Sequence record: MN850617.1
Direction: 5' to 3' (one strand)
DNA length: 42,476 nt
Origin: Escherichia phage forsur
Shown: in pieces, positions 1,891 to 33,408 of the stretch
Layout of the letters: every line of letters begins with the position of its first letter
How positions within the stretch are numbered: the stretch's first letter is position 1
Notes under the pieces: generated by a model
What the model saw: the letters and a program-made list of their open reading frames with translations, nothing else
Databases searched by the model: none
Told to the model about the DNA's origin: nothing
Made by a program: the position numbers and the translations under genes

Positions 1891-2124
1891 ATGAGCAGAT
1901 ACCAACGAGCCATTGAGGATACCGTGGTCGAGAAAGGTGTGTGCGGGGAGTGCCACGGCTGTGGCACATTCACCAGCATGACCATTCGACACGAGCTTGT
2001 CCAAACTGAATGTGAAGCCTGTGGTGGCACAGGCGTGACTGACCCGGCACTGCAACGTTCAGTGCTGCGGGAACAAGGTATGCGCTGCCAAGTGCAGCCG
2101 GGCTATGACCAACCAACGGAGTAA
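1891..2124 (+). CDS. small zinc-finger protein (CxxC...CxxC)
   Basis: ATG 1891 preceded by AGGAG; product contains CGECHGCG and CEACGG Cys pairs. Confidence 0.6.
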   Translation: MSRYQRAIEDTVVEKGVCGECHGCGTFTSMTIRHELVQTECEACGGTGVTDPALQRSVLREQGMRCQVQPGYDQPTE

Positions 2125-4559
2125 TGATGGACTTACTTGCTGAGCAGATTCGACTGGAAGAAGAAGCGCGAGCCAGACACCGCGAGGGCTGGCTGGATAA
2201 TATCAGAGAGGCGTTGGCCGCTGGCCGGGCTGGTTCAGTACCATTGCTCCAGCGTATGATGGTTGAGGCGTATCCTCAAGTTGAAGCTGCGATGCAAGAA
2301 CTCCTGAATGAAACTGCCCGTGGCTATGGTGCGCAGTACCGGACATACATGCGGGAGCTGGGGCCGCGAGCTTGTGCCTCACTCGCGTTGAGCATGGCTG
2401 TGTCCGGTGCCGCTGCTGAGCAAGCAGTGCTTAACTTGCTCAAGGACATGGGCAAGGCTCTCATGGCTGAGGTGGTGTACCTTCGGGCCAAGGCTGCCGG
2501 GCCTGTGCAGGCTGCGTACATGGCCAAGGTTAAGACTGACGTTAAGCGCTCTCGTTCCAAGTCAGCTAACCATGTGTATAACAAGGCGAAAGCGTCGGCG
2601 TCTAACGTTGGCGTTGAGCTGGATATCCTGCCACAGCGTGCGCTCATCACCATTGGTAAGATGATGATGAAGTGCATCGAGCCTACTGGTCTGCTGGTCA
2701 CTATGCGTGTCGGCGGCAACCACCGTCAGCGCGGCACCGCGCACTTCGCACTGCATGAAGATGTGCTGGCAACGATGAAAGATTGGATGGACTTGCCACG
2801 GGCAGACGGCCTGTGCTGTCCTCCAATGATTATCCCGCCAGCGCAGATTGCACGCGATGGTCGTAGTGGTATGTGGCACTCGCCGGGGCAGGCTGCCATG
2901 TACCGGGCAATCAGCCGCATGAACCACCGTGGCTACCGTGCGCTGGGTGTTGACCCACTGCCCATCATAGAGCCGTGTATGATGCTCAGCAGCGTTCCGT
3001 ACCGAGTTAACCCAATGGTATTGGAGTTCCTGAGAACGAACCGTACAGGCGTTATGGGGCTGCCTGTGCCGCCTCGTGAGCCTAAGCTCCCGTTCACCAT
3101 CCCGGCTGGTGTCAGCTTCGCTCAGTACATTAGCAAGTTCCCACCAGAAATGCAGCAGCAGATGGAGTCGGAAGCCCACGAGTACAAGGTGAAGACCCGT
3201 CTGTATTACAACGAGCTGCGCAAGTTCACGTCACAAATGCTGGCGCTGAACGGTGCAGTCAAAGAGGCCGAGCGCTATGCGCCATACGATAGGGTATATC
3301 TCCCGACTTACGCCGATACGCGGGGCCGAATTTATTATTCTTCGACCCTTAACCCTCAGTCCATCGACGCGGTGCGAGCGCTGCTCGAACTTGCTGAACC
3401 AGTGGCTCTCGGAGACGAGGGGCTGTTCTGGCTCAAGGTACATGTTGCGAATTGTTTTGGATACGACGCCACCGACTTCGACGACCGGGCGGCGTGGACG
3501 GACAAAACACTCCCCCGACTACGTGAGGCGTGCCGTCTTCCAGAGGCATTTGATTCGTTCTGGTCAGAAGCCGATAGCCCTATCTCAGCGTGGGCTGCTG
3601 CTGTTGAACTCATTCGAGCTATCGACTCAGGAAGTCCTGAGACTTATCCCTGCCGAGTGGTTACGCAGTGGGACGCTACATGTTCAGGACTCCAGCACCT
3701 CAGTGCGATGCTACGCGATGAGGTTGGAGGTGCTGCTGTCAATCTTGTCGATAGCGTGGGAAGAAAAGCAGACATATATCTTAAGACGGCAGCAGCGGCG
3801 ATGCAGGCTCTTGAAGAAAGTGAAGCGGCTGCGCCGACGACAATGGGTTCGTGGCTTGTTTCCATCGGCATTGTTCGGGCTATGGCCAAGAAGCCAGTGA
3901 TGACCTACGTGTACGGGGCAACCCGGCACGGCATGGTTGACTACTACTGCCTGTATCTGCGTGAGAACCGGGTCAAGCTGCCGGAGGGTAAGAGCCTGCT
4001 GGAGTGTGCTCAGTTCATTGCTGAGTTTATGTGGGCTGCTATCCCCCGCGTCGTGCCGAAAGCTGCCGAGCTGATGGCATGGTTGCAGGCTATCGCAGTA
4101 GAGGCTGCGAGCATGGGTGAGTACGTGGAGTTCACTGCGCCGTCCGGTCTTCGTGTGGTCAATCTGTATCAGGCCAGCAAAGAGATTGCGCTGAACAACA
4201 TCAACCTCATGGGTATCCACGGCATCAAGCTGCGCGAGTATCTGGATAAGCCAGATGGTCGCAAGTGTGCCGCTGCGATTGCTCCGAATTTTGTACACGC
4301 CATGGATGCCAGTCACATGATGAAGGTTCTGTGGGAGATGTGGAATAACGGGGTATACATGGTATCCATCCACGACTCGTTCGGTGTAGCGGCAGCCCAT
4401 GCTGGGTTACTGCACAAGGTCATCCGTGAAAAGTTTGTGCAGATGTATGAGGAATGTGACCCTATTCAGCAACTTGCGTCAGCATATAACCGTGAAGCTC
4501 CAGCTCGCGGTAATCTGGACATCCAGCTTGTGAAGAAATCAAGCAAGTTCTTCTGCTGA
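2124..4559 (+). CDS. single-subunit DNA-dependent RNA polymerase (T7-like)
   Basis: 811-aa ORF; contains QWDATCSGLQHLSAM (cf. T7 RNAP motif A DGSCSGIQHF) and VSIHDSFGV (cf. T7 motif C IHDSFG). Position immediately upstream of the structural module. Confidence 0.95.
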   Translation: MMDLLAEQIRLEEEARARHREGWLDNIREALAAGRAGSVPLLQRMMVEAYPQVEAAMQELLNETARGYGAQYRTYMRELGPRACASLALSMAVSGAAAEQAVLNLLKDMGKALMAEVVYLRAKAAGPVQAAYMAKVKTDVKRSRSKSANHVYNKAKASASNVGVELDILPQRALITIGKMMMKCIEPTGLLVTMRVGGNHRQRGTAHFALHEDVLATMKDWMDLPRADGLCCPPMIIPPAQIARDGRSGMWHSPGQAAMYRAISRMNHRGYRALGVDPLPIIEPCMMLSSVPYRVNPMVLEFLRTNRTGVMGLPVPPREPKLPFTIPAGVSFAQYISKFPPEMQQQMESEAHEYKVKTRLYYNELRKFTSQMLALNGAVKEAERYAPYDRVYLPTYADTRGRIYYSSTLNPQSIDAVRALLELAEPVALGDEGLFWLKVHVANCFGYDATDFDDRAAWTDKTLPRLREACRLPEAFDSFWSEADSPISAWAAAVELIRAIDSGSPETYPCRVVTQWDATCSGLQHLSAMLRDEVGGAAVNLVDSVGRKADIYLKTAAAAMQALEESEAAAPTTMGSWLVSIGIVRAMAKKPVMTYVYGATRHGMVDYYCLYLRENRVKLPEGKSLLECAQFIAEFMWAAIPRVVPKAAELMAWLQAIAVEAASMGEYVEFTAPSGLRVVNLYQASKEIALNNINLMGIHGIKLREYLDKPDGRKCAAAIAPNFVHAMDASHMMKVLWEMWNNGVYMVSIHDSFGVAAAHAGLLHKVIREKFVQMYEECDPIQQLASAYNREAPARGNLDIQLVKKSSKFFC

Positions 4560-4586: not shown

Positions 4587-4609
4587 ATGAAAGTGACTAT
4601 AGTGATAGA
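4587..4609 (+). promoter_or_regulatory. candidate phage RNAP promoter (T7/SP6-class core ACTATAG), putative +1 G at 4602
   Basis: ATGAAAGTGACTATAGTGATAG; the ACTATAG heptamer matches the -6..+1 core shared by T7 and SP6 promoters. Lies in the intergenic gap just after the RNAP gene. Exact inverted copy at 26463..26485; 14-mer direct copy at 4854..4867. Confidence 0.5.
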
Positions 4610-7114: not shown

Positions 7115-8347
7115 ATGTCTGGTGAATACCAACCTACTGCCGCACCCGCTCCCCAAAACGTACCCGCTGGCCCGACCTATTCTCCCTCTGGTCACGGCGG
7201 TAATGATTATGGTGGAAGCCCACAGGTGGTACAGAACCCAGCGCTCGGACGCTTAGGCACGCCGATTGAACTGCCGCGAGGTGGTGCAACTCCGCAGCCG
7301 CAACAGCCGTTCGGTCAACAGCCGGGCCTGATTCCAAATCAGGAGTACAACCCGTATGCCCAACCGCAGCAGGGAAACCCAAGCCCTTACGCACCCGTAC
7401 CTCAGCAGAACCCGTATGGTGCTCCGCAACCGCAAAGCCCGTTTGCGGCACCACCTATTCCGATTAATGGGTATCCGCAACAGGGCTACACGCCTCCGGG
7501 CCAAGCGGCTCCGGCACAGCAGCCGGGCTTAGCACCGAACAACCCTGCGTATGGCTTCAACCCGTATGGGCAGCAGCCTCAGCAGCAGCAGCCGCAACAG
7601 CAGGCACCTCAGCAGCCGCAGCAGCCTTTCCAGCAGTTGCAGCCGCAGCCGGGCCAGCCGCCTCAGCAGTTCCAGAATCCGAACCTAACGGCAGAGAATC
7701 TGGCAAAGCAGGAAGGTGGACTGACCGCTGACCAAGTGGCTCAGATTTTCCCGGATGAAACCAGTCGTGCTGTGTTCCAAGGTATGGACACCATCGCCCG
7801 TGGCCAGAACATCGACCTGCTTGCAGCGTTCGGTTCTGCATACGAGCGTCGTGACCCTACTCTGGTGAATGAGCGCTATCTGGCGCAGTTCGACCCACAG
7901 ACTGTATCCATCCTCAAAGGTCAATTCGGCGCACTGGTTGCCGCTGGTCAGCAGCGCGATGCTGCAATCGAACAGCAGGTTTACCAGATGGCTGGTGGCC
8001 AAGAGCGTTGGGGTCTGGCAGTGCAGGCATTCAATACCGCTGCCGACAAAGGCACGATTGATGCTGTAGTAGCGGCTGTGAACTCCGGCGACCCTAATCA
8101 GGTACGTCTGGCAGTGAACACCATTCTCCAGTTTGCTGGTTCCCAAGGGAATATGATTCAGCGTTCTGGACAAAGTTTGACGCCTAATGGTGGCGGTCAA
8201 GCACCTCGTGACGTTATGACTAACGAGGCATTCCGTCAGCATCTTGGCTGGCTTGAGCAGGCGCATCCTGTTGGTTCCCCGGAATACAACAAGCATTACG
8301 CCGTACTGGTAGAGCAGCGCCGTCAGGCCAAAGCTCAAGGTTACTAA
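7115..8347 (+). CDS. scaffolding protein with long N-terminal Pro/Gln-rich low-complexity region
   Basis: Sits between portal and capsid genes; C-terminal part (AGGQERWGLAVQAF...) resembles recalled T7 gp9 (AGGRERFDALYNHL). The N-terminal ~180 aa are P/Q/N/Y-rich repeats. Confidence 0.8.
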   Translation: MSGEYQPTAAPAPQNVPAGPTYSPSGHGGNDYGGSPQVVQNPALGRLGTPIELPRGGATPQPQQPFGQQPGLIPNQEYNPYAQPQQGNPSPYAPVPQQNPYGAPQPQSPFAAPPIPINGYPQQGYTPPGQAAPAQQPGLAPNNPAYGFNPYGQQPQQQQPQQQAPQQPQQPFQQLQPQPGQPPQQFQNPNLTAENLAKQEGGLTADQVAQIFPDETSRAVFQGMDTIARGQNIDLLAAFGSAYERRDPTLVNERYLAQFDPQTVSILKGQFGALVAAGQQRDAAIEQQVYQMAGGQERWGLAVQAFNTAADKGTIDAVVAAVNSGDPNQVRLAVNTILQFAGSQGNMIQRSGQSLTPNGGGQAPRDVMTNEAFRQHLGWLEQAHPVGSPEYNKHYAVLVEQRRQAKAQGY

Positions 8348-8368: not shown

Positions 8369-9361
8369 ATGGCCGACAACTACTATCAGCCGAATCAGTT
8401 CCGTCCACACTGGGGTGGTGCGAACTCTGATAACGACATTCACCTTGAGGTGTATGACCGTGATGTGCAGACCCAGTTCATCTACAACTCCATCTTCCGC
8501 AGCGGCCTGACCAACTTCAAGTCTGTTGCGAACCAGTCCAACACTTGGCGTGGCGACCGTCTCGGCTCCGTGTCTGTGAAGGGCCGTAAGTCTGGTCAGT
8601 CTCTGGACAACCAGCCAGTTCGCTCTGAGAAGCTGATTGTCACTGTGGATACCGTGTCTTACATCCGTATCCCGATTGACTATCAGGACGACTGGACTGC
8701 GCCGGACTTCCGTGCTGAGCTGACCCGTAACATGGGTACTGCACAGGCGAAAGCGTTCGACCAAGCGCACGTCATCCAGCTCCAGAAGTCTGCTGACTTC
8801 GTTCCTCCGACCTCTCTGGCAGGCGCGTTCAACTCCGGTATCAAGGAGAAAGTAACGCTGACTGGCACCGTGGCTTCTGAGGAAGACGATGCAAGCGCAC
8901 TGGTGCATGGTCACAAGAAAGTCATTGAGGCGTTCATTCGCCGCGACGCCGACCTTGGCCGTCTGGTAACGCTGATTGACCCGGCGTGGTTCAGCATCCT
9001 GCTGGAGCACAAGAAACTGATGAACGTTGAGTTCACTGGTGGTCGTGGTGTGAACGACTTCGCTATGCGTCGTGTTGCTTACGTGAACGGTATCCGTATC
9101 ATCGAGAGCAACGCATTCCCGCAGGCAGCAATCACCAACCACATCCTCGGTGCCGACTTCAACGTCACCGCCGAAGAAATCAAGCGTAAGATGATTATCT
9201 TCGACCCGTCTCTGGCTCTGGTCACTGTCGAAGCCCAACCGCTATTCAACCGCGTGTGGGATGACGAACGTGAACTGACCAACGTTCTGGACAGCTTCCA
9301 CATGTACACCGTGGGTCAGCGTCGTCCTGACGTGGTAGGCGTGGTTACTACCGAAGCCTAA
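8369..9361 (+). CDS. major capsid protein
   Basis: 330-aa ORF in the conserved position after the scaffold gene, followed by a hairpin terminator as in T7-like phages; RBS AAGGA upstream. Confidence 0.85.
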   Translation: MADNYYQPNQFRPHWGGANSDNDIHLEVYDRDVQTQFIYNSIFRSGLTNFKSVANQSNTWRGDRLGSVSVKGRKSGQSLDNQPVRSEKLIVTVDTVSYIRIPIDYQDDWTAPDFRAELTRNMGTAQAKAFDQAHVIQLQKSADFVPPTSLAGAFNSGIKEKVTLTGTVASEEDDASALVHGHKKVIEAFIRRDADLGRLVTLIDPAWFSILLEHKKLMNVEFTGGRGVNDFAMRRVAYVNGIRIIESNAFPQAAITNHILGADFNVTAEEIKRKMIIFDPSLALVTVEAQPLFNRVWDDERELTNVLDSFHMYTVGQRRPDVVGVVTTEA

Positions 9362-9371
9362 TGGTAAACTC

Positions 9372-9394
9372 GAAGCCCTTCATTGAGGGGCTTC
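9372..9394 (+). terminator. hairpin downstream of capsid gene (terminator candidate)
   Basis: GAAGCCC-TTCATTGAG-GGGCTTC, a perfect 7-bp stem followed by TATGATTAT; position is analogous to the T7 terminator after gene 10. Confidence 0.5.
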
Positions 9395-9427
9395 TATGAT
9401 TATCGTTACTCACCCAAAGGAGGGTGC

Positions 9428-25871: not shown

Positions 25872-26039
25872 GGGCATCTGAAAGCTGACACATTGAACAG
25901 GCCGTGGGTGCAATACCCCGGCTTGAAAATTGAACGTTTATGCGTGGGCCTCCCTCGACCCGAATGACCGCGCGTACCCCCATGACGTGTGCGCGGATTA
26001 GCCTCGCGACGTGCGCGATATTGCTCGCGTGCGCTGCGC

Positions 26040-26450
26040 GGCGCGTCAAGAGGATTGCCTGCGTGCGGTATAGCTCGTGCGTGTCGCGTTTCATCGTCTG
26101 CCGTGTGGCGTGCTGTGCGCTGTCCTGCTGGCTGTGCTGTGCGGTGCTGTCCTATGGGGACGCTCTGCGCTGGCTGTGCTGTGCTGCGTGCTGCGCTCGG
26201 TCGGGCGGGTATCTGTCTCTTTTGCCGTGGTACGCTCTGCGCCGTGGTGGTGCTGTGTGGTGGTGGTGCTGCCGTGGTGCTGTCCTGTCTGCTGGTCTAC
26301 TGTCTGCGCCGCCAGCTCTGCGCGTCATGCTCTGCTACCTGCTGCTACTGTCCTACTGCGTTCACTGGCTGCCGCCTGTCATCCTGTCGGATTCCATCCG
26401 TTGCCGTTCCGCGCTCGCTTGTTTCGGCTGCGCCGCGCTCGCTCTGCGTA
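26040..26450. repeat. A-depleted (C/G/T only on + strand) low-complexity block with degenerate GCTG/CTGTG/GGTG repeats; candidate terminal-repeat region
   Basis: Adenine is nearly absent on the + strand over ~400 bp, so no + frame contains a stop; non-coding position between the last late gene and the early promoters. Confidence 0.6.
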
Positions 26451-26462
26451 TCTAGCGATACA

Positions 26463-26485
26463 TATCACTATAGTCACTTTCATAA
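26463..26485 (-). promoter_or_regulatory. inverted exact copy of the T7-class promoter-like element at 4585..4607 (would fire leftward into the A-depleted block)
   Basis: + strand TATCACTATAGTCACTTTCATAA is the reverse complement of 4585..4607 (23/23). Confidence 0.4.
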
Positions 26486-26499
26486 TTATCTATTGATAT

Positions 26500-26590
26500 C
26501 AGTAACTTATAACCTATCTGATAACGGTATCTATCCTATGCAATAACCTATTCAATCAAATATTTATTCCTAATGATTACAGTAACTTAT
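26500..26590. repeat. AT-rich segment with 11-bp direct repeat CAGTAACTTAT (26500..26510 and 26580..26590)
   Basis: Read directly; copies are 80 bp apart, each preceded by TGAT; candidate origin or packaging iterons. Confidence 0.4.
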
Positions 26591-26622
26591 CCACTATTTG
26601 AGCTATTCAGTGAAAATAAATC

Positions 26623-26651
26623 TTGCAATGCTGTTTGTGATTTGCTGTAAT
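26623..26651 (+). promoter_or_regulatory. host sigma70-type early promoter P1
   Basis: -35 TTGCAA (26623..26628), 17-bp spacer, extended -10 TGcTGTAAT (hexamer 26646..26651); A-rich UP-like tract upstream. Confidence 0.6.
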
Positions 26652-26726
26652 TCTCATCGCCGGGTAGCAGAACATCGCTACACGGTGGCAAGACGGTAAC
26701 ACTGCTCTTTAACAATCTGGAGTGTA

Positions 26727-26755
26727 TTGACAAGGCAAGCTCACTATGCTGTAAT
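26727..26755 (+). promoter_or_regulatory. host sigma70-type early promoter P2
   Basis: -35 TTGACA (26727..26732), 17-bp spacer, extended -10 TGcTGTAAT (hexamer 26750..26755). Confidence 0.65.
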
Positions 26756-26863
26756 GCTTCCAGTCAGCCAGACAAGCCAAACAGTCATGGATAAAGACGT
26801 TAAAACCCGCGCAGGCTAACTGGTACGGATTATTCATCTCAGAATGGGCGCTGAATAAAACGG

Positions 26864-26892
26864 TTGACAGGATGAAACGAGTATGCTGTAAT
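26864..26892 (+). promoter_or_regulatory. host sigma70-type early promoter P3
   Basis: -35 TTGACA (26864..26869), 17-bp spacer, extended -10 TGcTGTAAT (hexamer 26887..26892); AATAAAA upstream. Confidence 0.65.
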
Positions 26893-26944
26893 ACGCTCCA
26901 GATTGACAGGGCAAGCAAGCCTGACAGTCAGTAGTAAAAAGTAG

Positions 26945-26973
26945 TTGACAAGCTGAATACACTGTGTTGTAAT
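26945..26973 (+). promoter_or_regulatory. host sigma70-type early promoter P4
   Basis: -35 TTGACA (26945..26950), 17-bp spacer, extended -10 TGtTGTAAT (hexamer 26968..26973); GTAAAAAG upstream. Confidence 0.65.
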
Positions 26974-27451
26974 CAGCACCGAGTTGGAAGGATGCAAAAC
27001 ATCCTGCTCTGAGTGAACGCAAACTGGCCGCGTAGTGTCACGGCTCACTGGGTATCCGCCGCAGGTTGGAACTGGGTGAGGCATCGCCGAAAGGCAACGG
27101 TATCGCAACAATGCTAACGCCGTAGGGGTAGCGCCTGATGCAAGGTAACGGAGAAGCGCGATAGACGCAGCGCAGTATCAGTACAATACCAAACGTCTTA
27201 TAAGGCGCGGAGTATAGCGGGTAGGTAGTCAAACGGCTTGTTAGCTGGCAACGGTGAGCAAGATACGCGACGGACTGCTGGAAGACTCCTGAGAGTGGAT
27301 GCAGACAATATCCACAGCGCGAAATGGGCGGGGCGATTTTTCAGGGTAGTGAATCCGACAAGCCAATCAATGCCACTGAGTGCAGACTGTACGGCGCGTC
27401 ACAATGGGTTCACTATCCACCTGAAAATAGCCAACAACTGGAGAAATAACT

Positions 27452-27844
27452 ATGTACCGTATCTATGCAAGCGCATATCGTCAGAACAACGCTGAGTGTG
27501 TTAATCTGGCGCTTCATTGCAAGGCACTGCGAACGGTGCAGGATATGTTCGGAGTGATTCCGGTCACACTGACAGGCAAGTTCGACAATGCGTATGAGTT
27601 AAGCATGGTCTTTCCTGTCGATGGAATCTACGAAATCAGACAGGCTGTTAAGCTGTTCTGTAAAGCCTTTGAACAGGACTGCATCATGGTAGTGACCGAT
27701 GACAATGATGCAATCTTCATGGATTCACCATATCCGGGCAAGCCTGCTGGCAAGTTTGTCAGCAAGACAGAAGCGGAGATGGAAGCCGGGCAGTTCACTG
27801 CTTGGACTTACGATGGTGAGCAATTTTGGGTAGTGGAGGCGTAA
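27452..27844 (+). CDS. hypothetical early protein (130 aa), first gene after the leader
   Basis: ATG 27452 with GGAG 8 nt upstream; ORF in track. Confidence 0.7.
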   Translation: MYRIYASAYRQNNAECVNLALHCKALRTVQDMFGVIPVTLTGKFDNAYELSMVFPVDGIYEIRQAVKLFCKAFEQDCIMVVTDDNDAIFMDSPYPGKPAGKFVSKTEAEMEAGQFTAWTYDGEQFWVVEA

Positions 27845-27845
27845 T

Positions 27846-27917
27846 ATGTTCACTGCACTCTGTGTGATAGCGGCGGCGTGCTGGCTGATTGACCAGCGCC
27901 TGTCTAAGCGAGCCTGA
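27846..27917 (+). CDS. tiny hydrophobic peptide (23 aa), speculative
   Basis: ATG follows upstream stop by 1 nt with GGAGG 8 nt upstream; MFTALCVIAAACWLIDQRLSKRA. Confidence 0.25.
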   Translation: MFTALCVIAAACWLIDQRLSKRA

Positions 27918-27918
27918 T

Positions 27919-28002
27919 ATGTGGGACTTACTGGTAGCGTTGTTCTGGTTTGTCTTTGCAGGCTTGTGGATTTACTGGTTGACTCGTCCCAAATTATGGT
28001 GA
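27919..28002 (+). CDS. tiny hydrophobic peptide (27 aa), speculative
   Basis: MWDLLVALFWFVFAGLWIYWLTRPKLW; weak RBS. Confidence 0.25.
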   Translation: MWDLLVALFWFVFAGLWIYWLTRPKLW

Positions 28003-28008
28003 CTGCCT

Positions 28009-28030
28009 AATGCGTCTTGCGAGGCGCATT
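28009..28030 (+). promoter_or_regulatory. intergenic hairpin with UUGCGA hexaloop (copy 1 of 4)
   Basis: AATGCGTC-TTGCGA-GGCGCATT; 8-bp stem including one G-U pair. Confidence 0.45.
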
Positions 28031-28066
28031 GTGAAGTAACCAACCAACAACCCGACGAGGTGTATC

Positions 28067-28594
28067 ATGACTACTGTTAAATATACTGCATTCAAAGATG
28101 CTGCGGCGCTGGACAAAGCTATCGAAGCGACTGTCAAAAAGGCGCACTCACTCCGTAACGATATTCAGAATGTTGCGGTCGGTATTATCCTGCACGCTTA
28201 CCATCACGGCGACTACACTCGTGCTGAGTCGTTCACTCACCAACTGGGTGATGGCGTCCGTGGTAAGGCACTGGTTGACTGGTTCGTCCAGTTCGGCGGC
28301 CTGATTGTGGGTGAGCATGAAGATGGCAAGTCCGGCTTCGTTGGCTGGAAGGGTGCCGACTTCATCAAAGAGAACATCGACAAGGCGAAAGCCACGATGT
28401 GGTGGACTTGCAAGCCAGAAGCGGCCTTTGATGGCTTCGACCTGCAAGATGCGCTCGAAAAGCTGATTGCCAAAGCTGAAAAGGCAATGAACAAGGCGAA
28501 CGAGCTGCGCCACGAAGGGCGCGATGAGGATGCGAACAAGGTTGTCGTGCCTCAGAACGTGCTGGACGGCCTGCGCAAGCTGAAAGCTGCGTAA
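28067..28594 (+). CDS. hypothetical early protein (175 aa)
   Basis: ORF in track; RBS GAGG upstream. Confidence 0.7.
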   Translation: MTTVKYTAFKDAAALDKAIEATVKKAHSLRNDIQNVAVGIILHAYHHGDYTRAESFTHQLGDGVRGKALVDWFVQFGGLIVGEHEDGKSGFVGWKGADFIKENIDKAKATMWWTCKPEAAFDGFDLQDALEKLIAKAEKAMNKANELRHEGRDEDANKVVVPQNVLDGLRKLKAA

Positions 28595-28607
28595 GCGGGA
28601 TTGACTC

Positions 28608-28629
28608 AAGCCATCTTGCGAGGTGGCTT
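28608..28629 (+). promoter_or_regulatory. intergenic hairpin with UUGCGA hexaloop (copy 2 of 4)
   Basis: AAGCCATC-TTGCGA-GGTGGCTT; followed by GGCAATTCTGCC at 28633..28644. Confidence 0.45.
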
Positions 28630-28667
28630 TATGGCAATTCTGCCCCAACAATTACGGAGTATCATCC

Positions 28668-28952
28668 ATGACCACTAAAACTGTTCTGGCCTACGTCACC
28701 AAGAAAGGCGAAGAAGTGTACGGCTATGCTGTGTCTATCGACGGCGGCCACAACTACCTGCATCACGTTCGTGAAGAAGGTGAACCGACTGACCACGATG
28801 GCATTCTGGAAACGCTGAAAGGCATCCCGCTGCCGCACGAAATCATCTGTATGCTGGCTGGCCAGACGGAAGATGACCTGCAACTGCGTCACGGCGACGA
28901 CCTGACCATTCAGGGTATCGGCAGCTTCGAAGCTGACGTAGACGACGAATAA
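28668..28952 (+). CDS. hypothetical early protein with acidic C-terminal tail (...GSFEADVDDE)
   Basis: ATG 28668 preceded by GGAG; ORF track starts it earlier (GTG 28623) across the hairpin, which is unlikely. Confidence 0.7.
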   Translation: MTTKTVLAYVTKKGEEVYGYAVSIDGGHNYLHHVREEGEPTDHDGILETLKGIPLPHEIICMLAGQTEDDLQLRHGDDLTIQGIGSFEADVDDE

Positions 28953-28962
28953 GCGTTGTCCT

Positions 28963-28986
28963 GCTGCATCCTTGCGAGGGTGCAGC
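28963..28986 (+). promoter_or_regulatory. intergenic hairpin with UUGCGA hexaloop (copy 3 of 4)
   Basis: GCTGCATCC-TTGCGA-GGGTGCAGC; followed by GGCAATACTGCC at 28989..29000. Confidence 0.45.
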
Positions 28987-29025
28987 GTGGCAATACTGCC
29001 TTATTCCAATCTGAGGATTAATCCT

Positions 29026-29106
29026 ATGTCTACACTGAAACTGGTACTGATTTCTAACATCGCTGCTGACGCTTTCGACGCTGATGACGTGGACTTCTCT
29101 GCGTGA
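29026..29106 (+). CDS. tiny acidic peptide (26 aa), possible remnant of the acidic-tail family
   Basis: ATG 29026 with GAGG 8 nt upstream; MSTLKLVLISNIAADAFDADDVDFSA. Confidence 0.3.
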   Translation: MSTLKLVLISNIAADAFDADDVDFSA

Positions 29107-29113
29107 TACCTTA

Positions 29114-29135
29114 CTGCCTCGTTGCGACGGGGCAG
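29114..29135 (+). promoter_or_regulatory. intergenic hairpin with UUGCGA hexaloop (copy 4 of 4)
   Basis: CTGCCTCG-TTGCGA-CGGGGCAG; followed by GGCAATCATGCC at 29139..29150. Confidence 0.45.
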
Positions 29136-29171
29136 TGCGGCAATCATGCCCAACCTAACTGGAGATTTACC

Positions 29172-29453
29172 ATGGCTACAATCAACGTGTATTCCCTGAG
29201 CAACGGCGGTCTGGCATTCATCGCTGGTGATAAGGTAGACGAAGCGCCGTCGCTGGGCGTGACGCCGAAACCGGAGGCCAGCCGTGATGATGTTATCGCG
29301 GAAGTCAAGGGTGCGCTGGAAGACCTCGGCGGTCTGCTGTTCGTCCTGAATGGTGGCAAGCTGTCGGTTGAAAAGCTGGACGCGCTGGAACCTGTCTTTG
29401 TTGAGAGCTTCGAAGCTGACAACATCGACCTCGCTGCTTTCGCTGACGCCTAA
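29172..29453 (+). CDS. small acidic early protein, tandem paralog A (MATINVY...SFEADNIDLAAFADA)
   Basis: ATG 29172 preceded by GGAG; alignable end-to-end with 29791..30099. Confidence 0.75.
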   Translation: MATINVYSLSNGGLAFIAGDKVDEAPSLGVTPKPEASRDDVIAEVKGALEDLGGLLFVLNGGKLSVEKLDALEPVFVESFEADNIDLAAFADA

Positions 29454-29491
29454 GCATAACCCGAAACCCACAACCAAAGAGGACAATCAAC

Positions 29492-29722
29492 ATGGCTAAG
29501 TTTGAACTGGTACGCTTCATTGACCCGAACGATGGCGAAGAAACCTTCGCGCAGTTTGCTGATGACCGCTCGCTGGTCGCCATCTACAACACTGAGCGCA
29601 CGGCGCGGCGCTGGTTCAAGGAAGACGACGACATGGACAGCATCGAAGAAGCGCTGGCTATGCCGGGCTACGCTGAGGCTGTCGAGGCAGCACTGAAAGG
29701 CGAAGTCGTAGCGACTGCGTGA
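29492..29722 (+). CDS. hypothetical small acidic protein (76 aa)
   Basis: ORF in track; RBS AAGAGGA upstream. Confidence 0.7.
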   Translation: MAKFELVRFIDPNDGEETFAQFADDRSLVAIYNTERTARRWFKEDDDMDSIEEALAMPGYAEAVEAALKGEVVATA

Positions 29723-29790
29723 TTTCTGTCAGCCCATCCATAGCGGTGGGCTGTAGGGCAATCATGCCACAACAACTGAGGGTATACACC

Positions 29791-30099
29791 ATGGCAACTA
29801 TCAACGTCTACAAAACTATCACTGGCTCACTGGTATTCGTAGTGGGTGAACTGCGTGAAGATGCACCAATCGTTGGCGTGTCTCTGCGTGAAGGGGCAAC
29901 CGAGGCTGACGCCATCGCTGAGATTCGTCAGAACATTGAGAACCTCGGCGGCCTGTTCTTCCTGCTGCAAGGTGGCAGCCTGAACCTCGCTAAGTTGCAG
30001 GAGCATGAGCCTGTACTCGTGACCAGCTTCGAAGCGGAAGATGTAGACGCCAGTGACTTCGAAGCCAGCCGCGCTGACGAAGAAGAAGCAGGCGAGTAA
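29791..30099 (+). CDS. small acidic early protein, tandem paralog B (MATINVY...SFEAEDVDASDFEAS...)
   Basis: ATG 29791; upstream hairpin 29730..29753 and GGCAATCATGCC at 29757..29768 mirror paralog A. Confidence 0.75.
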   Translation: MATINVYKTITGSLVFVVGELREDAPIVGVSLREGATEADAIAEIRQNIENLGGLFFLLQGGSLNLAKLQEHEPVLVTSFEAEDVDASDFEASRADEEEAGE

Positions 30100-30212
30100 T
30101 GAGCGCCATCGAGGTGGCACTGATGTTGGGCTGTCATGCAGGTATTGGCAGCCTCGTCATCTACATCGTTGGCGCGGCACGCAAATCATACGATAGGAGA
30201 ACCAAGCTATGA
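30099..30212 (+). CDS. tiny hydrophobic peptide (37 aa), speculative
   Basis: ATG overlaps upstream stop (TAATG); MSAIEVALMLGCHAGIGSLVIYIVGAARKSYDRRTKL. Confidence 0.3.
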   Translation: MSAIEVALMLGCHAGIGSLVIYIVGAARKSYDRRTKL

Positions 30213-30385
30213 AGTTTGCAGTATCGCGCAGCGGTGCAAGCCATGCGGCACACAAGTTGCACTTCCTGTTCCACTCGCTGTACCTTACAGCGGCTGCGAT
30301 GGAGGGTCACTTGTTCTATAGCCTCATGGCTGGCGGCACCTTACTGTTCATGGTTGGCACGGCGGTGCTGGGCAATGAACATTAA
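30209..30385 (+). CDS. small hydrophobic protein (58 aa), speculative
   Basis: ATG overlaps upstream stop (ATGA), AGGAG upstream; contains LMAGGTLLFMVGTAVLG. Confidence 0.3.
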   Translation: MKFAVSRSGASHAAHKLHFLFHSLYLTAAAMEGHLFYSLMAGGTLLFMVGTAVLGNEH

Positions 30386-30548
30386 TCTGTTACAACGGGT
30401 CAAGGGTATGGAGCGTCGGCACTGGGAGACGGCCATCATCCTTAAGGTAAGCATAAGCGCTGGACTGGCTGCTGCTTATTTCCTGCCAACCACCGCAGCA
30501 ATAGCCGTTGGTATCAGCACCAACCTGCTATGGTTGTGGAAGTTGTAA
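30375..30548 (+). CDS. small membrane protein (57 aa)
   Basis: In-frame ATG within track ORF 30216..30548; contains AIAVGISTNLLWLW; followed by terminator-like hairpin. Confidence 0.4.
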   Translation: MNINLLQRVKGMERRHWETAIILKVSISAGLAAAYFLPTTAAIAVGISTNLLWLWKL

Positions 30549-30562
30549 GCAGTGGATTACTC

Positions 30563-30590
30563 AAGGCTGTCCAGCGGGTAGCCTTTTTGA
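30563..30590 (+). terminator. intrinsic terminator candidate
   Basis: AAGGCTGTCC-AGC-GGGTAGCCTT stem-loop followed by TTTTGA. Confidence 0.5.
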
Positions 30591-30612
30591 AATCCATTGA
30601 CGAGAGGGGAGC

Positions 30613-30951
30613 ATGGCACTACATCGAGTGAAGGTAATGCGTGGGCCTGACTTCGAAGACGGGCAAGAGATTGCTGCATTGCAGTACCGCTTGCCGTCCG
30701 GTCAGGAGGGGCTGGTCATCATTGACCAGATTGAAATCATGGGTGAGCACATGCTGATTGCTGATGCCACCGATGAGCAAATCATTGAGCGCTGCAAGGC
30801 ATACGCCGGGGGCAGACCGTTCATCATCGACCTGATGAATGACCAGCACATCAATGCTGATGGTTCGCTGCTGTTCAAGGCATGGCTTTATGCTCTCACA
30901 ACAATCTACGAAGGGGAGATGTATCTCTTTGGCGTAGACAACGAGGGTTAA
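30613..30951 (+). CDS. hypothetical protein (112 aa)
   Basis: ORF in track; RBS GAGAGGGGAG upstream. Confidence 0.7.
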   Translation: MALHRVKVMRGPDFEDGQEIAALQYRLPSGQEGLVIIDQIEIMGEHMLIADATDEQIIERCKAYAGGRPFIIDLMNDQHINADGSLLFKAWLYALTTIYEGEMYLFGVDNEG

Positions 30952-30954
30952 ATC

Positions 30955-31269
30955 ATGAAGGTAAGCAAAGGATATCTGTTCGTGCTGTTGATGCTGGCCA
31001 CCCTGTATCTCAGCACCGTGCATGTGGCACTGGCAGCCACTGTGGAGAAGGTGCATTTGGATGCGTATGACGTACCGCTGGGCGCACCTGATGGACAGGT
31101 GTACTCTGCTTGCGTCATTGACCTACGCAAAGGCGGCACTGTCAGCACACTGGCCTACGTTGGTGAGTGTGAGGATGTGCTGCCACACCTGAAAGAAAAG
31201 CTGGAGCATGATGGCGTGACCACCATCGTGACTCTCTCAATCAACGGTCATAACATCAACCTAACGTGA
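30955..31269 (+). CDS. secreted/periplasmic small protein with N-terminal signal peptide
   Basis: MKVSKGYLFVLLMLATLYLSTVHVALA-ATVEK: charged N-region, hydrophobic core, ALA-A cleavage-like site; mature part has two Cys. Confidence 0.7.
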   Translation: MKVSKGYLFVLLMLATLYLSTVHVALAATVEKVHLDAYDVPLGAPDGQVYSACVIDLRKGGTVSTLAYVGECEDVLPHLKEKLEHDGVTTIVTLSINGHNINLT

Positions 31270-31277
31270 GGTTTTAT

Positions 31278-31529
31278 ATGAGCACTCAAGCTAAGATTGT
31301 AATTCTGCGCAACGACTATGGCCGTCCTACTCCGTTCGGCACCTTCTGTCCGTTCCTCGATACCATTGAGGGTAAAGAGTACGATGTACTCATCCTTGAG
31401 CCGGGCGAAGTGGACGCCGAAGGGGATGAAGTTGACAAGCGCTCGGTCAGTTTCCGCGATGAAGTGGGTGACTTAGCTGGCGCACACATTGACTACCATG
31501 AAGGTAAGTCATTCAAGTTCGTCGAGTAA
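31278..31529 (+). CDS. hypothetical protein (83 aa)
   Basis: ATG 31278 with GAGG 6 nt upstream. Confidence 0.65.
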   Translation: MSTQAKIVILRNDYGRPTPFGTFCPFLDTIEGKEYDVLILEPGEVDAEGDEVDKRSVSFRDEVGDLAGAHIDYHEGKSFKFVE

Positions 31530-31587
31530 TAATCTACAGCCTCTGCTTGCTGGGGCTGTGTCACTATCAAATAAACGAGAGGCAAAC

Positions 31588-31833
31588 ATGGCTAAGTATG
31601 ACGTATACAAAGACGGTGAGGGTGACTGGACTATCGTACCGGAAGGGCAGCAGATTGTAGCCCCGGTCGATGTGATTGCAATGAACGGCGCGGCGGCTGA
31701 GACACTGGCTGATGTGCAGCGCATCGCAACCACCAAGCGTGCAGGCTTCGAAGCTAACCGCACGCATGTCAAGTCGCAGGCTGTCATCAATCGCTTCGGC
31801 CCGTATGAACTGGCCGGGACTATTGAAGTGTGA
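31588..31833 (+). CDS. hypothetical protein (81 aa)
   Basis: ATG 31588 with GAGAGG upstream; preceded by hairpin 31537..31558 and motif TGTCACTATCAAA. Confidence 0.65.
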   Translation: MAKYDVYKDGEGDWTIVPEGQQIVAPVDVIAMNGAAAETLADVQRIATTKRAGFEANRTHVKSQAVINRFGPYELAGTIEV

Positions 31834-31890
31834 TAAGCTACTGCCCCTGCGTGCCGGGGGCAGTGTCATTATCAAACGATGGAGGTGGGT

Positions 31891-32175
31891 ATGGTACTGG
31901 CATCTGAATCAATCATTGAACACGCTGCTGATATCCGGGCGGCGGTTGAAAAGCGCGGGGTCGCAGCTACCCGTGGTCATCTCTCTGGCAACGGTGGCCT
32001 GCGTGGTCACAGCGTAGGCGGTGTGTTTCCCTGCGTTATCTTTGCTCGTGGCAATCCTAATGTGAAGCTCGACTGGTGCTTCCTCACACCAGCGGGTGAT
32101 GAGTTCGATGGCTTCATTAGTTATGAGGATGCGTATGCAGCCGCGCAGGAATGGCTGGAGAAAAGAGAGGTGTAA
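31891..32175 (+). CDS. hypothetical protein (94 aa)
   Basis: ATG 31891 with GGAGG upstream; preceded by hairpin 31841..31863 and motif TGTCATTATCAAA. Confidence 0.65.
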   Translation: MVLASESIIEHAADIRAAVEKRGVAATRGHLSGNGGLRGHSVGGVFPCVIFARGNPNVKLDWCFLTPAGDEFDGFISYEDAYAAAQEWLEKREV

Positions 32176-32176
32176 C

Positions 32177-32470
32177 ATGAGCAGAAGTGCTAAGTGGGAT
32201 GCGCTGGTACAGTGGGTGAAGGATAGCTTCGGGCCACCGCCTACCCCTGACCACGATGACTCGCCGTTCCAATACGTCGAGAAGAAAACGCAGGAGCTTA
32301 AGCTGGGCGACTACGTTGTAGCATACGGTGGATACATCCAGCGCATCGGTGCCGTTGAATATGATGGCAGCCGACTGGTTGTAACCAAGCTGGGGCATGG
32401 CCCTGAACGTGAATGGCAGGCGTTTGAAGACGACGAGTTCACAATCCGCACACTGAAAGAAGGAAAGTAA
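32177..32470 (+). CDS. hypothetical protein (97 aa)
   Basis: ATG 32177 with AGAGAGG upstream. Confidence 0.65.
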   Translation: MSRSAKWDALVQWVKDSFGPPPTPDHDDSPFQYVEKKTQELKLGDYVVAYGGYIQRIGAVEYDGSRLVVTKLGHGPEREWQAFEDDEFTIRTLKEGK

Positions 32471-32472
32471 TC

Positions 32473-32988
32473 ATGGCTATTGACTTTAAATTATTCAACG
32501 CCGAGCAACTTGAAACTGTCAAGTCTCTGGCTGAGTTCATCGACAACCACCCGGAGCTGAGCGAACTGGTTGAGTTCAAGGGTGGCTACCTGCCGAAGCA
32601 AAGTTACATCGGCGCGGTGCGTAAAGGTCGTGAAGGTATGCTGGATATTATTCCGCAGACCAGAACCGGGGCGCTGCTGGCACGCAACGTCAGCGTGCTG
32701 ATTGGCATGAACGTGAAGCGTGCCAGTGAGCAGGGCAATGCGGCTGAGGTTGAGACGCTGCGCCTGACAGGTACGCTCGCAGCTAAGGCCATGTCGGAAC
32801 CGGACATTGCCGAGCGCTATCATGACTGGTACATGGCGTGCGCTAATGTGCCAAGCGATATCAGTGAGACGACGCTGGGCCTGCTGTTCGTAGGTGAGTT
32901 CATCGACGCAACCATCCGTGCAGTCAGCGGTCAGGTGGGTGAATTAATTCAGGCAATGCAGCAGGCCAAGAATGCAACACGTCACTAA
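32473..32988 (+). CDS. hypothetical protein (171 aa)
   Basis: ORF in track; RBS GAAGGAAAG upstream. Confidence 0.7.
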   Translation: MAIDFKLFNAEQLETVKSLAEFIDNHPELSELVEFKGGYLPKQSYIGAVRKGREGMLDIIPQTRTGALLARNVSVLIGMNVKRASEQGNAAEVETLRLTGTLAAKAMSEPDIAERYHDWYMACANVPSDISETTLGLLFVGEFIDATIRAVSGQVGELIQAMQQAKNATRH

Positions 32989-33213
32989 GCTCACCGTAAC
33001 CAAATCACCCACCGGATTATTCTGGTGGGTAGTTGATAAGCTGCAACCAAATAAACCTTTGGCTGTGCGTGATACAAAGTGGGAAGCCGAGAGTAAACTC
33101 GAAGACCTTCAACGTATTATGCGGAATGTTATTCCAGCTTAGCCATCTACTCATGCCAGTTATTATTTAGCTGGCATTATGAAGGTGACTATATTGGACA
33201 ACCCGGAGGAAAT

Positions 33214-33381
33214 ATGTTTCGTGTATTAATGTTATTCGTACTCGTCGTTATATTGTGGGGCGCGTTATGGGTAGGCGTTGCCTATTTAATTCAGCCTTAC
33301 ATTGGCGAACAGCTTACCTCTGTAATTGGTACGCTGCTTGGGCTTTGTTGTTGGCGCAGTTGGTATGTCCAAGTGCATTGA
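33214..33381 (+). CDS. small membrane protein (55 aa)
   Basis: ATG 33214 with GGAGG upstream; MFRVLMLFVLVVILWGALWVGVAYLIQPY... has two hydrophobic helices; preceded by promoter-like GGTGACTATAT. Confidence 0.45.
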   Translation: MFRVLMLFVLVVILWGALWVGVAYLIQPYIGEQLTSVIGTLLGLCCWRSWYVQVH

Positions 33382-33408
33382 CATTGGCTGGAGTAAGGGG
33401 TGGATTAA

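Follow-up and report, generated by a model that had tools for sequence, protein, structure and literature searches.

RNase III acts on substrates of about two helical turns, in which internal loops limit cutting to one strand, and the 3' hairpin that remains shields the upstream RNA from exonucleases (PMC1540722). The shortest helix above the cut that gives good reactivity is 11 bp; in an 11-bp helix, the canonical boxes are GC; AU/UA; AU; AU/UA (proximal) and UA, UG (distal), and a C-G pair at position 2 of the proximal box is a reported binding antideterminant (PMC1540722). In phage T7, sites R0.3, R0.5, R1, R1.1, R1.3, R4.7, and R18.5 all fold into a two-tier layout in which an internal loop (no larger than 1x1 in R1.3) separates a lower from an upper stem. 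The T7 early sites were folded at the cleavage coordinates attributed to Dunn and Studier (1983), including the R0.5 cut CCUUUAU|GAU. Each of these cuts falls on the 3' side of the internal loop of the predicted hairpin, which supports the coordinates used; annotated RNase III features are not displayed in T7 records NC_001604 and V01146.

Cleavage is proven at T7 site R0.5, an intercistronic site that separates genes 0.4 and 0.5 in the early mRNA transcribed by the host polymerase and reads GAGUGAUAG...AUUAUCAC. Site B of Escherichia phage forsur, a candidate counterpart, has the same intercistronic early position and two-tier layout and reads GUGUGAUAAG...CAUUAUCA. The 5' strand of the lower stem carries tandem stop codons in both (GAG-UGA-UAG, gene 0.4, in R0.5 and GUG-UGA-UAA in site B), and the 3' strand is AUUAUCAC in R0.5 and CAUUAUCA at site B. 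The two differ above the lower stem: R0.5 has an ACUC/UAUGA internal loop and an AAGGUC...GGCCUU upper stem with canonical proximal and distal boxes, whereas in site B a C.U mismatch and a bulged A take the place of this loop and the upper stem is all GC (ACUGCCCC/GGGGCAGU). Site B and its diverged copy, site A, are read here, with moderate confidence, as RNase III-type processing or stability hairpins of the early mRNA that also mark cassette junctions. The sites were previously unannotated and would belong to a well-known kind of element; the cassette-junction pattern is a modest addition.

Two repeated hairpins in the early cluster of forsur

The window analyzed is the whole forsur sequence of 42,476 nt, circularly permuted as presented. 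Around the sites, sequence identity is 98% to Escherichia phage glasur and 93% to Cronobacter phage RZ4, Pantoea phage ROV85, and Kosakonia virus Kc261. These four phages belong to Bonnellvirus (Autographiviridae), as does forsur by this identity. The sequence TTGACA-N17-TGTAAT occurs three times, at 26727, 26864, and 26945 (0.13 expected by chance), and a run of small genes lies downstream, from 27452 to about 33150. The phage-polymerase-type promoter TATGAARGTGACTATA appears first at 33181 and again at 4589, before the structural genes, with a third copy on the minus strand at 26469; the phage polymerase itself is encoded by gene 2124-4559. The resulting working map of early transcription has three host-type promoters at the left end, followed by a polycistronic RNA that would be cut into short messages. 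A scan for sigma-70 promoters and terminators reported nothing at site A or site B; it also overlooks the TTGACA-N17-TGTAAT triplet because it demands A at position 2 of the -10 hexamer. The three triplet sequences resemble T7 promoters A1 to A3, but have G at that position. Between the triplet and the S-adenosylmethionine (SAM) hydrolase gene (27452) lies a GC-rich leader of ~480 nt with no convincing gene (region 26727-27451), which was matched neither by Rfam nor by the RNase III-site model.

Both sites lie on the plus strand, between a stop codon and the next Shine-Dalgarno sequence. The site A hairpin (ACAGCCTC-TGCTTGCT-GGGGCTGT, about 31535-31560) overlaps and runs into the motif TGTCACTATCAAA (31559-31571), which is followed by the Shine-Dalgarno sequence GAGAGG (31577-31582) and ATG 31588. 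At site B, the hairpin (ACTGCCCC-TGCGTGCC-GGGGGCAGT, about 31839-31865) likewise overlaps and runs into TGTCATTATCAAA (31864-31876), followed by GGAGG (31881-31885) and ATG 31891. The two ATGs are the annotated starts of glasur_13 and glasur_14. A sequence-only reading of this DNA had described two hairpins, each followed by the motif TGTCAYTATCAAA, a ribosome binding site, and an ATG, and inspection of the sequence bears this out. The boundary that it drew between hairpin and motif needs correction, as the first two bases of the motif form the last two pairs of the hairpin (11-bp stem in the alignment fold). Its assignment of the sites to middle genes does not hold, both being inside the early cluster, downstream of the TTGACA-N17-TGTAAT triplet and upstream of the promoter at 33181.

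The exact motif has only two copies in 42.5 kb on both strands, against ~0.0025 expected from base frequencies. The sole other near-match (TGTCGTTATCAGA, two mismatches, 8426-8438 on the minus strand) lies inside the capsid gene on the opposite strand and is at chance level. Folding energies compared with shuffles are -14.6 kcal/mol (z = -3.8) for site A and -19.5 kcal/mol (z = -3.0) for site B. The likeness between the sites spans ~50 nt (TRATAAKCTACnGCCnCTGCnTGC(C)nGGGGCnGTGTCAYTATCAAA), which identifies them as diverged duplicates of a single element rather than independent coincidences. Paralogy of the downstream genes as a cause of the repeated upstream sequence was ruled out: the two proteins are unrelated, and gene paralogy is therefore no explanation for the repeat. 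The gene between the copies (31588-31833, plus strand) has 81 codons. PHROGs gave no function for the genes flanking the sites, and a 94-codon gene matched an uncharacterized family.

Folded structure and conservation

When its flanks are included in the fold, site B extends below the hairpin: UUAUCA (31869-31874) pairs with UGAUAA (31831-31836), the tandem stops of the upstream gene, with an additional pair G31837-C31867. In the minimum-energy fold, the 5' strand of the lower stem is UGAUAAG (31831-31837, including the stops TGA TAA of gene 31588-31833) and the 3' strand is C(A)UUAUCA (31867-31874), the core of the motif. A C.U mismatch and a bulged A separate this 7-bp lower stem from the upper hairpin (31839-31865, plus strand) of 11 bp with a 5-nt loop, the dimensions also found in T7 R3.8. 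In this folding model, the site B motif is the 3' strand of the lower stem of a two-tier hairpin. Six contiguous Watson-Crick lower-stem pairs beside a hairpin have a chance of ~0.009 for random flanks, and none of the other 25 perfect-stem hairpins in the forsur genome has more than four contiguous flank pairs.

Thus site B has the two-tier layout (11-bp upper and 7-bp lower stem), and site A does not. The lower stem of site A has changed from TGATAAG to TAATAAT and from CATTATC to CACTATC, leaving A.C mismatches, and three of the seven lower-stem pairs are broken in all six site A variants aligned. The position of the 5' strand is held, in degenerate form, by the tandem stops TAA TAA (31527-31532, plus strand) of the upstream gene (31278-31529); relatives with a single copy of the element have TGATAA where site A has TAATAA. 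The upper hairpin of site A keeps its pairing in six relatives, where its pairs have changed from C-G to U.G and from U.G to U-A.

Covariation was examined in 12 distinct element versions (A type, B type, and single-copy type). The set is limited to this size because searches for more distant relatives came up nearly empty: the protein of gene 31588-31833 found no relatives in IMG/VR and only six close relatives by tblastn against phage genomes, and a DNA pattern scan gave one contig. The upper stem is 100% paired in 12 of 12 sequences, with one compensatory swap from A-U to U-A between types; its other changes are C-G to U.G and U.G to U-A or C-G. These wobble-type (G.U) changes keep the pairing, which fits an RNA read from the plus strand. 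All B-type and single-copy rows retain the lower stem, with its strand UGAUAAG invariant, and RNAalifold on all 12 sequences returns the 11-bp upper stem only.

Of the third codon positions, 14.6% vary among the seven phages with both sites. At site B, one of 46 columns varies, by a C-to-U change that keeps the pairing. Near-invariant against the third positions, site B is therefore constrained as a whole, and these alignments indicate that it is under purifying selection. Site A has 6 variable columns of 45, 3 of them among the 12 columns of the motif. By this comparison, its upper stem alone looks maintained, while its motif (31559-31571, plus strand), by its variability and low profile score (below) a decayed lower-stem 3' strand, drifts at about the neutral rate.

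Comparison with T7 RNase III sites by profile models

BLAST searching with a forsur T7-type site failed to reach T7, and covariance models were therefore used. Model R1 was built from seven T7 sites alone and run on both strands of the whole forsur genome with filters off. Site R3.8 was left out of the training alignment because MAFFT misaligned it, and R6.5 and R13 because the coordinates used for them are not centered on clean hairpins; the model found a match in the R6.5 region unaided. Four R1 matches were significant, all intergenic and on the plus strand (covariance-model E-values being rough by a factor of about five): 30546-30602, the best in the genome (46.7 bits, E = 1e-8); 9355-9411, the hairpin ACUCGAAGCCC...GGGGCUUCUAUGAUUAUCG directly 3' of the major capsid gene (38.4 bits, E = 1e-6); 28591-28646 (ACUCAAG...CUUUAUGG; 32.5 bits, E = 3e-5); and 33136-33194, at the end of the early cluster and overlapping the first phage-type promoter (29.1 bits, E = 2e-4). 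These four share gene-relative position, strand, and two-tier layout with T7 R0.3, R1, R1.1, R1.3, R3.8, R4.7, and R18.5. The 9355-9411 hairpin is conserved in RZ4 and HHU8, and the equivalent place in T7 is held by terminator T-phi. In the 33136-33194 element, the upstream half of the promoter, UAUGAAGGUG, is the 3' strand of the lower stem of the hairpin.

On site B, R1 gave a full-length match in register, which at 12.2 bits and E = 3.2 (eighth best) is not significant alone, and it did not find site A in the forsur genome. The model was iterated with matches from forsur, seven relatives, and T7 added at E < 0.01 (round 1) and E < 0.001 (round 2), and the added matches included neither of the two sites nor their orthologues. 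Site B (31824-31880, plus strand, as matched by all three models) then scored 18.7 bits (E = 0.067) with R2 and 24.4 bits (E = 7e-4) with R3, again full length and in register. Model R3 gave 28.3 bits (E = 5e-5) on the single-copy elements of relatives and 6.8 bits on site A, with noncanonical lower-stem pairs. Profile scores were strongly strand specific. Sites A and B are outliers in the T7-type class, reached by iterated profile search only and, in site A, lacking the lower stem. As the significance of site B arises only via intermediate Bonnellvirus elements, the profile match may owe more to common descent within the phage than to a function in common with T7 sites.

The box sequences of the upper stems depart from those of T7, which has AAGG/CCUU as the proximal and UA/UG as the distal box; sites A and B lack both. 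From its base, the upper stem of site B reads U.G, A-U, C-G, U-A, G-C, C-G, C-G, C-G, C-G, U.G, G-C, without the canonical boxes and with no UA/UG distal box, and in the register of R1.1 it places C-G, the reported antideterminant, at position 2 of the proximal box. These noncanonical boxes lower the case for membership of site B in the class, yet cleavage is still compatible with them since natural substrates vary.

The same two-tier fold recurs in the early cluster, in the intergenic hairpins at about 28008, 28603, 28963, 29112, 29730, and 30566. In those at about 28603, 28963, 29112, and 29730, the recurrent downstream motif GGCAATnnTGCC is the 3' strand of the lower stem; the element at 29713-29770 (plus strand; R1 E = 0.22, R2 E = 3e-5, and fold) has GGCAATCATGCC in this role. 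The hairpin at 28603 reads ACUCAAGCCAUCUUGCGAGGUGGCUUUAUGGC, and T7 R1.1 reads ACUCAAGGUCAUUCGCAAGAGUGGCCUUUAUGAU. The GGCAATnnTGCC group is probably the first class of hairpin plus motif in the sequence-only reading. Since GGCAATnnTGCC and TGTCAYTATCAAA are both lower-stem strands, the motif classes are different lower stems of one kind of element, and both early-region motifs are recast in this way.

Sites of the same type occur in other phages. The T7-only model R1 found four sites at E < 0.004 in the early region of J8-65, the type Bonnellvirus, and two in the early region of Pantoea phage LIMEzero (E = 2e-7 and E = 3e-4); the first 9 kb of Pseudomonas phage phiKMV and of Salmonella phage SP6 gave none at E < 0.01. 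The LIMEzero counterpart of forsur 33136-33194 (FR751545, 7255-7313) is annotated as a "putative factor-independent terminator" followed by a phage promoter. The R3 match to this counterpart covers the upper stem (7254-7283, model positions 17 to 46 of 58, E = 6e-4), and R1 gives a marginal full-length match at 7237-7293 (E = 0.034). Unlike this element, neither site A nor site B of forsur adjoins a promoter. Among the hairpins examined in records of Bonnellvirus and LIMEzero, one, in LIMEzero, is labeled as a terminator and the others are unannotated; none is annotated as an RNase III site. Literature searches on such sites in Bonnellvirus, LIMEzero, and phiKMV-like phages yielded no report, and the Bonnellvirus papers located do not treat RNA processing. 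The presence of a T7-type signal outside the classical T7 subfamily suggests adaptation to enterobacterial RNase III or horizontal spread.

Proposed processing model, cassette junctions, and competing explanations

Sites A and B are two diverged copies of a ~50-nt intercistronic RNA element in the early polycistronic Bonnellvirus transcript, read here as a signal for RNase III-type processing or mRNA stability. In the intact element, a GC-rich upper stem of 11 bp is joined through a small internal loop to a lower stem of UUAUCA on the UGAUAA stops. Host RNase III would cut the early polycistronic RNA in or beside the internal loop; by covariance-model alignment to T7 R0.5, the predicted cut at site B falls between 31866 and 31867 (TGT|CATTATC, plus strand), inside the motif. 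The upstream mRNA would terminate in a protective 3' hairpin, and the downstream mRNA would start with a short unstructured A/C-rich leader, ~15 nt before the Shine-Dalgarno sequence. Both the cleavage and its effect on mRNA stability or translation are predicted from the analyses above, and recognition of the sites as T7-type RNase III-like predicts exact mRNA ends. PMC6212723 gives cutting of both strands as the usual in vivo pattern of RNase III in E. coli; as site B is a nearly continuous double helix, both of its strands could be cut, which would remove the protective hairpin. Site A keeps an 11-bp upper stem and therefore could still be a weak RNase III substrate; with its lower stem lost, it probably has a hairpin function only, as a weak substrate or an exonuclease barrier.

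The two element copies are direct repeats that flank the single gene 31588-31833. Eight phages (megetsur, aldrigsur, altidsur, mellemsur, BHUENT7, LF82-23, Ec1-ASingh, and SS-2025) have a single element at the equivalent place, as does one IMG/VR contig, and the gene is missing from all nine. The single element mixes both sites: its hairpin is that of site A, and its TGATAAGCT and CATTATCAAACGA correspond to site B. Over ~55 nt, a stretch that takes in the final two codons, GTCGAG, the element is identical behind differing upstream genes, which in some phages are homologues of the 31278-31529 gene (41% identity, E = 5e-12) and in others are unrelated. The gene that follows site B also differs between relatives. 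A hairpin plus GGCAATCATGCC precedes each of the paralogous early genes 29172-29453 and 29791-30099 (47% identity, E = 1e-28), which indicates tandem duplication of units of element plus gene. The flanking of one gene by two copies, the single and double copies, the differing neighbors, and the paralogues together place the elements at junctions of gain, loss, and duplication of early cassettes. Elsewhere in the cluster, between the elements at about 28963 and 29112, forsur has only a 26-codon open reading frame (29027-29107) where glasur has glasur_4 (339 nt), equivalent to a ~258-nt deletion in forsur bounded by elements.

A tentative extension is that RNase III-type hairpins double as portable cassette borders, early genes traveling as units of hairpin, leader, gene, and hairpin, with the conserved 50-nt element as the homologous sequence through which enterobacterial phiKMV-like and T7-like phages gain, lose, and exchange single anti-host genes. 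If true, this could explain the recurrence of T7-type sites in subfamilies with distantly related proteins, and sites A and B would be the direct repeats left by one insertion, copy A decaying afterwards. The boundary or linker sequences at mosaic junctions of lambdoid phages, associated with the modular theory of Susskind and Botstein and reportedly with work of Clark and colleagues in 2001, are a similar case, being short conserved intergenic sequences common to phages with differing or unrelated flanking genes. The forsur element differs from them in also being a structured RNA with covarying stems and in belonging to a virulent T7-like phage. For phage engineering, the sites are natural insulators as well as cassette junctions.

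The main rival to the RNase III reading, rather unlikely on the evidence assembled here, is that the sites are generic intercistronic stabilizer hairpins and not RNase III substrates, with a GC-rich stem that blocks 3'-to-5' exonucleases or guides RNase E to the neighboring single-stranded, AU-rich AUUAUCAAA and a lower stem that is incidental or a relic. It would account for the upper stem being the sole structure common to all 12 variants, for its retention at site A without the lower stem, for the noncanonical proximal and distal boxes (PMC1540722), and for the lack of a U-tract, which removes termination as a role. It leaves unexplained the invariance of the site B lower stem and motif where synonymous sites vary, the full-length match of site B in register to the RNase III-site profile, and the four unambiguous T7-type sites at equivalent positions in the same operon. 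Intrinsic termination itself was ruled out: neither site is reported by the terminator scan, and the tails read GTCAYTATC with no T run. That the sites serve chiefly as conserved DNA linkers, whose short homology lets recombination shuffle early-gene cassettes among phages, any RNA structure being secondary, appears improbable. The direct repeats around a gene that the eight single-copy phages lack, the identical 55-nt element (with its GTCGAG codons) behind two unrelated upstream genes in different phages, the varying gene after site B, and the tandem paralogues with their elements all agree with it; however, the stem has changed by compensation or by way of wobble pairs, a sign that RNA pairing is selected. 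A linker role in recombination is likely, as an addition to the RNA function and not a replacement for it.

Two further explanations are very improbable. The sequence-only reading had suggested, from a CACTAT core, that the sites could be weaker promoters used by the phage RNA polymerase. Site A does have GT-ACTAT in common with the promoter GTGACTATAG, and T7 promoters and RNase III sites are often adjacent. Yet the promoter consensus TATGAARGTGACTATA, matched at 4589, 33181, and 26469 (minus strand), is unmatched at 31559 and 31864 in a pattern search allowing up to 3 mismatches, and CACTAT is a derived variant of site A, with CATTAT at site B and in every single-copy relative. In addition, the site A motif varies in glasur, usur, and HHU8, the would-be upstream half of the promoter is the GC-rich hairpin, and both sites lie inside the early cluster. 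What survives of the proposal of a distinct regulatory site class is a repeated site that precedes genes; the promoter function does not. That reading had also allowed for processing at these sites, in line with the present prediction. Action at the level of DNA, whether as the operator of a dimeric DNA-binding protein or as a replication signal in cruciform or hairpin form, would suit the inverted repeat at each site. Palindromes resembling RNase III sites, from a T7-like vibriophage, trigger the Lamassu DdmABC defense, which senses them as DNA (PMC11707656), and host defense can thus also sense such palindromes. Against a DNA-level role, the G.U-type changes retain pairing in plus-strand RNA only, the stem sequences differ between copies with complementarity retained, and the profile scores depend strongly on strand.

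Rfam searches gave no matches for the whole genome at gathering thresholds and, for 26400-33400 at permissive E-values, one chance-level match (E = 0.47) and nothing relevant. Next to the genome end, an exact inverted copy of the 21-nt late promoter TATGAAAGTGACTATAGTGAT occupies 26469-26489 on the minus strand, aimed back at the lysis genes. The glasur annotation has a minus-strand open reading frame at the counterpart of this segment, and neither this frame nor the plus-strand open reading frame 25940-26455 matched a PHROG family. The same minus-strand copy of TATGAAAGTGACTATAGTGAT is present in glasur (2-22), RZ4, and ROV85.
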